Shown here: positions 2,733 through 24,470 of the stretch, one piece after another | Layout of the letters: each line of letters begins with the position of its first letter | Numbering within the stretch: the first letter of the stretch is position 1 | Origin: Clostridia bacterium | Lineage (GTDB): Bacteria; Bacillota; Clostridia; TANB77; CAG-465 | Reading direction: 5' to 3' | Assembly (NCBI GenBank): GCA_045604405.1 | Contig: JAZUNZ010000047.1 | Location: forward strand, 14,663 to 78,662 | DNA: 64,000 nt | The notes under the pieces: model-generated | Told to the model about the DNA's origin: nothing | What the model saw: the letters and a program-made list of their open reading frames with translations, nothing else | Database searches by the model: none | Made by a program: the position numbers and the translations under genes

Positions 2733-3115
2733 TTAAAAGATATTTACGCGATAATTTGCATATTTATTTGAGATAGTAATAGTGTTAGAGTTTTCTATTT
2801 TATCTGAAGGGATTAGATACATGGATGAATCTGCTAAAAAGACAAATAATAAGTCTACAGAAGTATTCTTAAATGTTTTGTATGTTGTGCCTTTAGTGCC
2901 ACCACAACTTTTTAGGGCAACTTGGAAATGATTATATCTAGTTTTACAACCGCTAGATTTTACTTGCACCGTTTGTATAATTTTATTCTTTTAGATGATT
3001 AGGTCATAATCTTGAGTATCGTTAAGAGGGATAGATACGGTGTAACCTTTTGAAGAAAAATATGCTATTGCCACTCCTAAAGCAGTATTACCTTTTTCTT
3101 TATTTGTAGAAAATT
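2733..3115 (-). pseudogene. PD-(D/E)xK-type nuclease gene, Hjc/Vsr/YraN-like in its motif pattern, interrupted by an in-frame TAA at about 2992-2994.
   Basis: One reading frame gives ..NTALGVAIAYFSSKGYTVSIPLNDTQDYDLII*KNKIIQTVQVKSSGCK.., which is the D-x-D/E..QVK core of the restriction-endonuclease fold. RBS GGAGG at 3126-3130. No clean ATG start. Confidence 0.45.
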
Positions 3116-3169
3116 TAATAAATAACCTCCTAGAAAATAAAAAAATACAAGTATTAAAATACTTGCATT

Positions 3170-3480
3170 TGGTGGGAGGGGATGGATTCGAACCATCGTA
3201 AGCGAACGCTAACAGATTTCTTACTACTATAACTTTCGTTACCAAACAAATTGTTTGTAGTCTGGACTTTCTCTTTATCTCCAAATAGAAGATACCCGGT
3301 ATAAAGTCTCTACACTCAAAGATTAAATCTTTTAGCTCGGGATTGCCATCAGCATTACCTGTTAAGGTTTCCCCGAATTAGCCAGGTTATCATCATACAA
3401 TTACTTGTATGAGCTGCAAGTTTAGGTTTTTGAAACCAAAGACCACAGTCTGCCTCCTTTAGCCACTCGGACACCCGCCC
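3170..3480 (-). tRNA. tRNA-Tyr(GUA) gene interrupted in the anticodon loop by a 225-nt group I intron. Exons are 3445-3480 and 3170-3219.
   Basis: The 5' exon is GGGCGGGTGTCCGAGTGGCTAAAGGAGGCAGACTGT. The 3' exon is AAATCTGTTAGCGTTCGCTTACGATGGTTCGAATCCATCCCCTCCCACCA. Joined, they give an 86-nt class II tRNA with anticodon loop CTGTAAA. It is close to Bacillus tRNA-Tyr (GGAGGGGTAGCGAAGTGGCTAAACGCGGCGGACTGTAAATCCGC...). The acceptor stem has one C4:U69 mismatch. Confidence 0.75.
3220..3444 (-). ncRNA. Group I intron of the tRNA-intron family, the same family as the Azoarcus tRNA-Ile and cyanobacterial tRNA-Leu/fMet introns.
   Basis: The 5' exon ends in U and the intron ends in G (..GTAGTAAG). 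The P1 candidate is CUGU:GCAG. The P2 hairpin is CATACAAGTAATTGTATG with a GNRA loop. The core motifs AATTCGGGGAAACCTTAACAGG, GATGGCAATCCCGAGCTAA and GAGTGTAGAGACTTTATACCGGG closely parallel the Azoarcus intron's AAUUCGGCGAAACCUAAGCG, AUGGCAACGCCGAGCC and GUGUAGAGACUAGACGG. Confidence 0.7.
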
Positions 3481-3507: not shown

Positions 3508-3584
3508 TGGTGGGCCTTCAAGGATTCGAACCTTGGACCCACCGGTTATGAGCCGGTTGCTCTGACCAACTGAGCTAAAGGCCC
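3508..3584 (-). tRNA. tRNA with anticodon CAU. It is either elongator tRNA-Met or tRNA-Ile2 (the lysidine type); the two cannot be told apart from sequence alone.
   Basis: The 77-nt sequence GGGCCTTTAGCTCAGTTGGTCAGAGCAACCGGCTCATAACCGGTGGGTCCAAGGTTCGAATCCTTGAAGGCCCACCA forms a perfect cloverleaf with encoded CCA. Confidence 0.9.
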
Positions 3585-3679
3585 ACACTTCGTAGTGAAC
3601 AGTATTATTATAATTAATTTATAATTATTTGTCAATAGAAATTTGTAATTTTTTTAAATATTTTTTGCTGTTAACATAA

Positions 3680-8649: not shown

Positions 8650-9290
8650 TATCACGAATTGGTAGTTAATTAAAACAATAATATGTGAATTAAAGTGGGT
8701 GTATTAGGACGGAAGCTATTCATAAATTTGACTTTTTAGCATAATAATGTTATAATATATAACGTATGGCACATTATTCTAGTCGGACTTAACTGTTTTA
8801 GGATGGGCCTAAAAATCCATCGAATAGCACATTAATGGCGTCTTGTATTTATGCTTCTTTCGCCCAGATTGGGGTGTGAGTATAAGGGGTAAAGATTAAG
8901 GTAAATTATATAATGGCATATATGACTCGCCTTTTTCAGCCACACAAATAGTGTAGACCTTTATATAGAGAGTACTATATAATTGTAGCTAGTCGTGCGT
9001 GAAACTTCGGGATAAATGAAACTCTGTTTTGAAATTAGTTTTGCAAAAGCGAATAAGAACAGTGGAAATCCGTCAGGGAAAACCTCTAGAATGTCACAAA
9101 AAGTGAATGTTTTAAGGATTACAGTGTGGACTAAGTGGTAATCAAGTAGCCAGCTAGGCGACAGCTGGATGCCAGTCTTAAAGGGAAACCGCTACAAGGT
9201 AACAAGTAGTGACTAGTAGGGAAATCCGACTTGACCTCAAGCCACAAAATTTACTTAAATCATTGCCATATCATATATAGTATAAAAGGA
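8650..9290 (+). promoter_or_regulatory. Unusually long (about 640 nt) structured untranslated region between the argS terminator and a small membrane-protein gene. It may be a riboswitch leader or an sRNA; the class is not identified.
   Basis: Several stable hairpins are visible (CCAGCTAGGCGACAGCTGG; repeated GGAAATCCG..C motifs at about 9068 and about 9215; GGGAAACCGC). The stretch is GC-richer than neighbouring intergenic DNA. No ORF runs through it. Confidence 0.35.
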
Positions 9291-24072: not shown

Positions 24073-24404
24073 AGCAAGTATTTCTGGCAGTCGCGCAAAG
24101 TATATTTGTGAGGAAAGTCCGGGCACCTCAAGGTAGTAATGGTAGATAACGTCTACTGGGAGTAATCCTAAGGAAAGTGCAACAGAAAATAACCGCCGAA
24201 AGGTAAGGGTGAAAAAGTGAGGTAAGAGCTCACTAGCATTTATGGTGACATAGAAGCTTTGTGTAAACCCCATTTGGTGCAACACTGATAAAGAAGGTTA
24301 AGGGTACCTTGCCGTCTTCTTGAAAAGTGGCTTGAGATATATAGCAATATATATCCTAGATTAATGACTGTCTAAAACAGAACCCGGCTTATGAAATGCT
24401 TGCT
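24073..24404 (+). ncRNA. rnpB: RNase P RNA (rnpB).
   Basis: GAGGAAAGTCCGGGC (P4 5' strand) and ACAGAACCCGGCTTA (P4 3' strand). P1 pairing is AGCAAGTATTTC / GAAATGCTTGCT. A T-run follows. Confidence 0.9.
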
Positions 24405-24470
24405 TTTTTTATATATAAGTGATAGAATACTAAAAATAAAATTAAGCAATATTTTAATAGATATGCGGGG

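Follow-up and report, generated by a model that had tools for sequence, protein, structure and literature searches.

This work describes a group I intron locus from a Clostridia bacterium, contained in a 64,000-nucleotide (nt) stretch of contig JAZUNZ010000047.1 (referred to here as the window). The minus strand carries the whole feature: a class II tRNA-Tyr(GUA) gene, at 3480-3170, is interrupted within its anticodon by a 225-nt intron, and directly 3' of it lies the pseudogene of a free-standing homing endonuclease of the PD-(D/E)XK type. The reading that we favor, and consider likely, is that the intron-bearing tRNA-Tyr gene and the free-standing endonuclease together constitute a bipartite mobile element, with collaborative (trans) homing as its means of spread. 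An earlier inspection of this DNA (the original prediction) had proposed that a group I intron of 225 nt interrupts tRNA-Tyr(GUA) in a Firmicute. This proposal is borne out by a covariance-model score, by covariation among 20 homologues, by a natural intron-less allele (L263), and by relatives that are Clostridia metagenome-assembled genomes (MAGs). Its sequence details were sound; it left the strand unstated and overlooked the endonuclease remnant just downstream, which tells more than the rest of the locus.

The locus is a minus-strand two-tRNA transcription unit consisting of a promoter, tRNA-Met, tRNA-Tyr, and a terminator-like hairpin. Its features, together with the helices of the intron (P1 to P9a) and the endonuclease pseudogene, are as follows:

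3607-3635, minus strand: putative sigma-70-type promoter, TTGACA / 17 nt / TATAAT, with 12/12 matches in a consensus scan; 5' of the tRNA-Met/tRNA-Tyr pair.
3508-3584, minus strand: tRNA-Met(CAU), gene 1 of the two-tRNA unit; 5' of tRNA-Tyr in most homologous loci.
3445-3480, minus strand: tRNA-Tyr 5' exon, 36 nt, GGGCGGGTGTCCGAGTGGCTAAAGGAGGCAGACTGT, ending in ...CTGT (ARAGORN and sequence).
3220-3444, minus strand: 225-nt group I intron with an IC3-like core, starting with GGTC and ending in ...GTAAG (Rfam, ARAGORN, covariation, and alignment).
3414-3419, minus strand: 3' strand of P1, with the internal guide sequence GCAG at 3414-3417 as the partner of exon CUGU (P1 pairs either do not vary or vary on a single side).
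3393-3412, minus strand: P2 hairpin with a GUAA (GNRA) loop (compensatory changes in 6/8 pairs).
3382-3386, minus strand: 5' strand of P3, with its partner at 3295-3299 (compensatory changes in 3/5 pairs).
3337-3376, minus strand: P4-P5-P5a domain, with P4 formed by UCGGGG/UCCCGA and a receptor-like internal loop, CCUUAAC/GAUGG, in P5 (covariation model and RNAalifold; one compensatory pair in P5).
3314-3336, minus strand: P6/P6a hairpin (three compensatory pairs, in P6a).
3305-3310, minus strand: 5' strand of P7, G(A)GACU with a bulged A, partner AGUCC at 3264-3268, in a pseudoknot with P3 (invariant in the tRNA-Tyr family).
3276-3294, minus strand: P8 hairpin (three compensatory pairs).
3223-3261, minus strand: P9.0 (ACUAC/GUAGU), P9, and the P9a hairpin with an invariant GAAA tetraloop (covariation model and RNAalifold).
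3170-3219, minus strand: tRNA-Tyr 3' exon, 50 nt, AAATCTGT...CCCTCCCACCA (ARAGORN and the intron-less allele L263).
3139-3166, minus strand: A+T-rich hairpin with a run of 7 T behind it, terminator-like, after tRNA-Tyr (read from the sequence; position conserved in relatives).
2733-3119, minus strand: pseudogene of a free-standing PD-(D/E)XK (PF11645, I-Ssp6803I-type) homing endonuclease, directly 3' of tRNA-Tyr and behind the terminator-like hairpin.

A terminator scanner made no call at 3139-3166, where there are too few G-C pairs. The 5' exon of tRNA-Tyr holds the 5' strand of the acceptor stem, the D arm, the 5' strand of the anticodon stem, and loop nucleotides C32, U33, G34, and U35; the 3' exon supplies A36, the loop that follows it, the 3' strand of the anticodon stem, the long variable arm, the T arm, the 3' acceptor strand, A73, and CCA. 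The insertion point therefore falls between anticodon nucleotides U35 and A36 (position 35/36). All of the class II parts that had been claimed, namely, the D arm (TCC/GGA), the CTGT|AAA anticodon loop, the variable hairpin, the T arm (GATGG-TTCGAAT-CCATC), and the encoded CCA, are present in the exons. When the exons are joined in silico, ARAGORN calls the resulting 86-mer a tRNA-Tyr, with a class II cloverleaf featuring G1-C72, A73, a long variable arm, CCA, and a GUA anticodon. The acceptor stem has a single blemish, a C4:U69 mismatch (window positions 3477 and 3177, minus strand). This mismatch is common to the syntenic clade (L118, L245, L248, L254, and L262) and to intron-less L263, and because it has been kept across the clade and in an uninterrupted allele, it is probably tolerated. 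Positions 4/69 of tRNA-Tyr in other clades are U4:G69 or C4:G69.

Relatives with conserved synteny were found by searching with the neighboring YchF protein. One of them, L263, has the gene order of the window (ArgRS-RNHCP-PRK-YchF...Phage_30_3-RpoD) and a YchF that is 84% identical; there, tRNA-Met is followed by an uninterrupted tRNA-Tyr (L263:4398-4483) whose 86 nt equal the predicted ligated exons of the window, C4:U69 included. This natural allele, the one intron-less version sampled, supports the predicted splice junction to the nucleotide. In another relative, L262, whose YchF is 93% identical, the intron is present (222 nt).

The intron itself is recognized by two programs. The Rfam covariance model Intron_gpI (RF00028) matches 3442-3244 of the minus strand end to end, at 51.9 bits (E = 3e-12; 701-nt slice, relaxed filters), and ARAGORN with introns allowed reports tRNA-Tyr(gta)i(37,225). 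Folded alone, the intron has a z score of -2.5 relative to shuffled sequences. It contains no open reading frame (ORF). As originally described, it starts after a U (U35) and ends in a G; this terminal G (omega G), at 3220, is invariant in 20/20 tRNA-Tyr intron sequences. The last U of the 5' exon is the U partner of the P1 U:G pair, and the resulting wobble at the 5' splice site (U36:G64) likewise occurs in 20/20, with the next two pairs switching between G:U and A-U. Before step 1, the UU at 3418-3419 pairs with intron nucleotides G37 and G38; it could also form a short P10 with the AA of the 3' exon. The P2 hairpin is capped by a GNRA loop (GUAA), as had been read from the sequence, and P7 is presumed to be the guanosine-binding helix. 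For P9.0, an initial register (ACUA/UAGU) was dropped in favor of the 5-bp ACUAC/GUAGU helix given by RNAalifold.

Searches by genome, metagenome, and protein context, which covered Clostridia genomes and metagenomes, yielded 20 distinct sequences of tRNA-Tyr with an intron. The introns are 218 to 233 nt long, and every one is inserted at 35/36. The structural model evaluated on their alignment comprises P1, the P1 extension, P2 to P9a, the P3/P7 pseudoknot, and the cloverleaf; it places 98.1% of alignment cells in pairs, versus 34 to 44% when partners are slid by 1 to 3 columns. There are 25 pairs with changes on both sides, and the observed covariation score was reached by 0/500 shuffles. 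Compensatory changes are concentrated in P2, P3, P6a, P8, P9a, and P5, and they are also found in the acceptor, D, anticodon, variable, and T helices of the tRNA. When run blind, RNAalifold recovers P1, P2, P3, P4, P5, P5a, P6a, P8, P9, and P9a, and not the pseudoknotted P7. Compared with the ≥90% family consensus, the window intron deviates at one column, where the pair is still a U:G wobble; the ribozyme in the window appears to be still under selection.

To place the intron among its wider relatives, one genome per species was scanned with the core pattern AATTCGGNGAAACC...GGCAAYNCCGAGC, giving at least 120 loci. Among the matches listed, nearly all are introns in tRNA anticodon loops, from many phyla and in many hosts (Leu(UAA), Met/Ile(CAU), Thr, Arg, Phe, Asn, Ser, and others). 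The pattern GACTGT..AATTCGGNGAAACC gave mostly chance matches, with tRNA-Tyr introns making up ~14/120 of the metagenome matches listed and 0/4 of the viral ones. The three core blocks of the window intron align column for column with those of IC3-type tRNA introns from 91 other loci, including Azoarcus-type tRNA-Ile(CAU) introns of Rhodocyclaceae and Burkholderiales, which confirms the resemblance to Azoarcus-type tRNA introns that had been noted. By this alignment, the sole basis for its subgroup, the intron is best described as IC3-like. With the Azoarcus-type IC3 introns of tRNA-Ile(CAU), tRNA-Leu(UAA), tRNA-Arg, and tRNA-fMet it shares the core blocks AAUUCGGNGAAACC, GGCAAYNCCGAGC, GUGUAGAGACU, and AGUCC, a GAAA-capped 3' hairpin before the terminal G, a length of ~200 to 250 nt, a location in the anticodon loop after a U, and the absence of an ORF. 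It differs from them in its tRNA-Tyr host, in its position inside the anticodon (35/36 versus 33/34, 34/35, and 36/37), in an extra P9 hairpin, and in the P5 loop (CCUUAAC/GAUGG versus CCUAAG/UAUGG).

The nearest relatives in other tRNAs are 60 to 68% identical to the window intron, and the closest of them (68%) is a tRNA-Thr(UGU) intron at 36/37 in a Bacilli MAG (L055). Because the two junction contexts almost match (CUUGU|AAUC in Thr, ACUGU|AAAUC in Tyr), so that a guide recognizing YUGU|AA would suit both, it is plausible that the intron moved between tRNA-Thr and tRNA-Tyr hosts. Right after the intron-containing tRNA-Thr(UGU) of this MAG lies an intron-less Bacilli tRNA-Tyr (L055:434-520), which shares its anticodon arm (GGCAGACTGTAAATCTGTT), letter for letter, with the Clostridia genes.

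Several other loci were encountered during these searches. A metagenome tRNA-Asn(GUU) has a 315-nt intron at 35/36 (L206:1576-1963). Two Rhodobacterales loci (L010:1700-2028 and L068:1434-1763), in which ARAGORN reports "tRNA-Ile(tat)" with an intron at 35, were weighed as additional 35/36 cases and rejected; by stem register and the guide GCAG, both are tRNA-Thr(UGU) with an intron at 36/37, and they exemplify a miscalled intron boundary. In Bacilli MAGs, an IC3-type intron contains a 149-amino-acid (aa) ORF with an HNH motif (L064:377-826; also L031); these related introns are thus predicted to encode an endonuclease from another family. Finally, one intron-containing tRNA-Tyr (L297:465-797) matches L296 throughout except for a 59-nt deletion, in which the T arm, the acceptor 3' strand, and some of the terminator are lost; an assembly error or a dead allele would account for it.

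The second component of the locus is the endonuclease gene. In the window its frame is not intact. A ribosome-binding site, GGAGG, is present at 3130-3126, the start codon is ATT (3119-3117) where relatives have ATG, and an in-frame TAA (2993-2991) takes the place of a Glu/Asp that is conserved in 37 relatives. The conceptual translation nevertheless matches PF11645 at 59.4 bits against a cutoff of 26.1, and a sequence search of the PDB matches entry 2OST, which is I-Ssp6803I, the homing endonuclease of the Synechocystis tRNA-fMet intron. Intact orthologues of ~127 aa are found at the same place in L118, L042, L050, L155, L167, L174, and others. The AlphaFold model of one of them (P0001, from L118) has a predicted local distance difference test score of 87.5, and its best PDB match is again 2OST (E = 9.5e-9, template modeling score of 0.77, 29% identity). 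The YDL...QVK motif (D39 and Q52-V53-K54) is invariant in 37 relatives. The family as a whole is large, with 2,080 sequence clusters at E ≤ 1e-5 and PF11645 in 120/120 among the matches listed. At no locus is the gene inside the intron; it always follows the terminator-like hairpin, beyond the end of the tRNA gene. A 97-aa ORF at 2991-3284 of the minus strand was dismissed as an artifact, in which the N-terminal frame of the endonuclease is read upstream through the overlapping tRNA.

Linkage of the two components was assessed through the genomic places of seven endonuclease clusters that are 66 to 90% identical to the L118 protein. Wherever upstream sequence existed, an intron-containing tRNA-Tyr directly precedes the endonuclease gene, in at least six unrelated gene neighborhoods, and no sampled Clostridia endonuclease gene with upstream sequence follows an uninterrupted tRNA-Tyr. 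The intron does occur without the gene (L262 and L138/L154), with short N-terminal remnants of it (L173 and L199), or with a truncated copy (L140). The sole intron-less locus sampled, L263, lacks the endonuclease gene too. Relative to L118, the endonuclease cassette is a clean indel of ~418 bp between the T-run of the terminator and the promoter of the next gene, and intron and cassette are separate indels. In L262, the last few codons of the gene remain, which indicates that it was deleted there and was not originally absent. A single syntenic clade accordingly contains four states: an empty site (L263), an intron with an intact gene (L118, L245, and L254), an intron with a pseudogene (the window), and an intron with a deleted gene (L262).

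In the Clostridia loci with endonuclease P0082 (L285, L287-L289, and L291-L293), the order is tRNA-Met, tRNA-Tyr with its intron, the endonuclease gene, and then tRNA-Gly, 7 nt past the stop codon; from this order, the gene sits inside a tRNA operon. Two further loci (L258/L259, ~2256-2500) contain a partial duplicate of the tRNA-Tyr 3' end (CGAATCCATCCCTGCCCACCA) between the intact tRNA-Tyr and the endonuclease gene, which may be a recombination scar. One contig (L256), which is 100% L245-like up to tRNA-Met and then 100% L254-like to its end, was considered as a recombinant of these two and thus as evidence of homing. This was rejected: because the single switch runs to the contig end and both strains are in the same sample, we take the contig for a probable assembly chimera, joined at the conserved tRNA.

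These observations suggest how the intron may be removed and how the locus may spread. We infer that the intron is self-splicing, from its anatomy and from established group I chemistry. P1 would arise by pairing of exon nucleotides C32-U35 of the anticodon loop with the guide GCAG, placing the U35:G wobble at the splice site. An exogenous guanosine bound in P7 would attack after U35; the terminal G at 3220 would then replace this guanosine, and the freed 3'-OH of U35 would attack after that G. Exon ligation, possibly helped by a short P10, would yield the 86-nt tRNA-Tyr. P1 uses loop bases only and spares the anticodon stem, and therefore the tRNA body can fold around the ribozyme.

For mobility, the endonuclease would cut intron-less tRNA-Tyr genes at or near the pseudopalindromic anticodon stem-loop. 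The intron, by splitting the cut site, would shield the carrier chromosome, and repair off a donor possessing both intron and endonuclease would copy both parts. Since these lie only ~85 to 100 bp apart, one conversion tract could span them. An ORF-less intron and an adjacent free-standing endonuclease gene are found together here, as collaborative homing entails, and the empty site is without both. Among the Clostridia loci sampled, the intron occurs without the gene yet the gene never without the intron, an asymmetry that fits the homing scheme and is expected if the gene cannot sit beside an intact target. The window, with its decayed endonuclease and retained ribozyme, fits a late stage of the homing cycle. 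A wider version of this reading, to which we give even chances, would hold that an ORF-less IC3 ribozyme set in the anticodon of tRNA-Tyr and a free-standing I-Ssp6803I-type endonuclease behind this gene form a bipartite homing element that is widespread in gut Clostridia, a chromosomal tRNA-gene case of collaborative homing, and a living intermediate toward endonuclease-containing tRNA introns, with PF11645 proteins being tRNA-gene specialists that also occupy phage tRNA arrays.

A number of points weigh against the bipartite element or one of its parts. Default ARAGORN and a standard whole-window Rfam scan at the gathering score reported tRNA-Met (3584-3508) only and missed tRNA-Tyr and its intron; annotated in this way, members of this widespread Clostridia group will seem to have no tRNA-Tyr. 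The Rfam gathering score for Intron_gpI is 50 bits, so the match obtained with the slice clears it by a narrow margin of <2 bits. P1, P4, P5a, and P7 are invariant within the tRNA-Tyr family and draw their support from broader relatives or from homology: the P4 pair G109:C140 is G-C in 80, U-G in 16, C-G in 11, U-A in 11, and A-G in 2 of 120 loci, and the P7 pair U176:A213 is U-A in 111 and C-G in 4 of 115 broader relatives. ARAGORN found no second tRNA-Tyr within the 64-kb window, which was the whole of the search, and an uninterrupted copy may exist elsewhere in the genome. The distribution of the intron inside the syntenic clade fits a single gain or loss and by itself is no proof of mobility. 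There is one intron-less allele, from a modest sample that was found through endonuclease or intron queries. Lastly, 18 phage contigs (L267-L284, viral, 57 to 175 kb) carry endonuclease relatives with 40 to 60% identity, free-standing in tRNA gene arrays. No group I intron was detected near these relatives, and in L272 and L277 the gene is directly beside an intron-less phage tRNA-Tyr. As the phage relatives are free-standing, the family can persist without the intron, and its target need not be the insertion site. The endonuclease family clearly favors tRNA loci. The phage tRNA arrays also hold ROOL RNA (L282:2369-2933, 305 bits), drum RNA (L278:2932-3041, 77 bits), and skipping-rope RNA (L269:46-128, 64 bits).

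These phage genes form the basis of a serious rival explanation, in which the ribozyme is functional and the endonuclease is an independent selfish gene engaged in "intron-less homing" in or beside tRNA genes; the intron would not be its immunity, and the two would share a locus and sometimes be coconverted. Such a gene could live in a tRNA array without any group I intron, as the phage relatives do, two of them next to an intron-less tRNA-Tyr. The placement of the P0082 gene between tRNA-Tyr and tRNA-Gly resembles a phage array, and the separate indels of intron and cassette also point this way. The Clostridia genes, on the other hand, speak for a tie to the intron, with all sampled genes in those unrelated neighborhoods lying behind an intron-containing tRNA-Tyr and none behind an uninterrupted one; in addition, introns without an endonuclease are common. 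We therefore judge an independent endonuclease rather unlikely, if still of real weight.

Two more alternatives concern the role of a single component, and we find both highly improbable. The interrupted gene could be a dead tRNA pseudogene with a decaying, nonsplicing intron, and tRNA-Tyr could come from another gene. Its C4:U69 mismatch, the pseudogene adjoining it, the Rfam score barely over the cutoff, and a view of the genome limited to 64 kb would all agree with this. However, across 20 distinct sequences, the exons and the intron have been conserved, and the helices of tRNA and ribozyme show compensatory changes; the window copy deviates from the consensus once; C4:U69 is clade-wide and also present in uninterrupted L263; the unit has a predicted 12/12 consensus promoter; and the 64 kb hold no other tRNA-Tyr. 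Alternatively, the downstream protein could be a splicing cofactor (maturase) of the intron rather than a mobility enzyme. It is tightly linked to the intron, and in other families, certain homing endonucleases also act as maturases. Yet the intron is intact and constrained where the gene is deleted, truncated, or disrupted, the catalytic nuclease motif is invariant, and we know of no maturase activity in the PD-(D/E)XK family. The collaborative homing of an intron-bearing tRNA-Tyr and its neighboring endonuclease remains our preferred reading.

The locus extends what has been reported for bacterial tRNA introns. The original prediction held that tRNA group I introns are known mainly from cyanobacteria, plastids, and a few proteobacteria, which is out of date: a survey of 4,934 complete genomes by Nakagawa et al. 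(2026) recorded 333 such introns, spread over 18 phyla (PMC13011429). It also held the intron to be about as small as the smallest known. In the survey, introns average 257 nt and span 184 to 894 nt (PMC13011429), so that 225 nt is below the mean and not close to the minimum, and our own scan returned Azoarcus-type introns of 190 to 205 nt. The intron is thus not exceptionally small and no longer a taxonomic surprise. Introns at 35/36 number 28 in the survey, of which 19 are from Patescibacteria and 25 belong to subgroup IA; a Patescibacteria tRNA-Tyr 35/36 case is listed, as is one 35/36 intron in Bacillota_A (PMC13011429). The Patescibacteria 35/36 introns in tRNA-Asn, tRNA-Asp, and tRNA-Tyr resemble ours in position (GU|N anticodons) and in that standard annotation tools fail on them, and self-splicing from this position has been shown experimentally there (PMC13011429). 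They differ in being of subgroup IA, some with internal HNH genes, whereas the window has an IC3-type core, a Clostridia host, and an external PD-(D/E)XK gene. In our searches of the published literature, we found no tRNA-Tyr group I intron in Firmicutes and no free-standing PF11645 gene beside a tRNA intron.

On the endonuclease side, the closest known system is I-Ssp6803I, which is encoded in a tRNA-fMet intron and cuts tRNA-fMet DNA at the anticodon stem-loop; its tetramer binds a 23-bp pseudopalindromic target (PMC3384342). The window family shares with it the Pfam family, the top structural match, a small size (~127 to 150 aa), and a tie to a group I intron in a tRNA anticodon loop, where the DNA is naturally pseudopalindromic. 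Unlike I-Ssp6803I, which lies inside its intron, the window gene is free-standing behind a terminator-like hairpin and is a pseudogene; phylum, host tRNA, and insertion position differ as well. Two phage systems have been described in which an ORF-less intron and a free-standing endonuclease home collaboratively (PMC3984707; also PMC2790892). In the cyanophage ORF-less psbA intron with its free-standing endonuclease and in T4 mobE/I-TevIII, as here, co-occurrence suggests that the intron marks or protects the target (PMC3984707, PMC2790892). Those phage cases involve protein-coding genes and HNH-type enzymes, in contrast to the chromosomal bacterial tRNA gene and PD-(D/E)XK enzyme considered here, for which the homing mechanism is our inference.

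Other features of the window bear on the host and the neighborhood. A full-length OLE (ornate large extremophilic) RNA is present at 8750-9285 of the plus strand (283 bits against a cutoff of 50), which fits an anaerobic Firmicute host, and a class A bacterial RNase P RNA is present at 24075-24406 of the plus strand (261 bits). The syntenic relatives of the locus are all titled as Clostridia MAGs; together with the OLE RNA and the class A RNase P, they support a host among the Clostridia, within the Firmicutes. A 232-aa lipoprotein-like ORF separates the endonuclease pseudogene from a Phage_30_3-domain gene (window ORFs 1890-2588 and 1272-1853, both minus strand); L118, L245, L262, and L263 have no such ORF at that place. 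NCBIfam has no family for the endonuclease or for the two neighboring ORFs.

The intron is a well-supported addition to the known bacterial tRNA introns, and the linked endonuclease and its decay series extend the known mobility scheme. As a ribozyme, it is a compact, well-constrained IC3-like candidate set inside an anticodon, at 35/36. Endonuclease genes were sought in the survey inside introns only, and most bacterial tRNA introns were inferred to be of limited mobility, with such genes rarely inside (PMC13011429). That an endonuclease can sit beside the intron, and not only inside it, bears on this inference; if the bipartite reading is true, the limited mobility of ORF-less tRNA introns would need revising. 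The 2,080 clusters of I-Ssp6803I-type enzymes represent a large and diverse pool, presumably with new tRNA-gene specificities. With every stage from the empty site to the decayed enzyme displayed in one syntenic clade, the locus provides a simple bacterial test case for the assembly of mobile introns from a ribozyme and a free-standing endonuclease.

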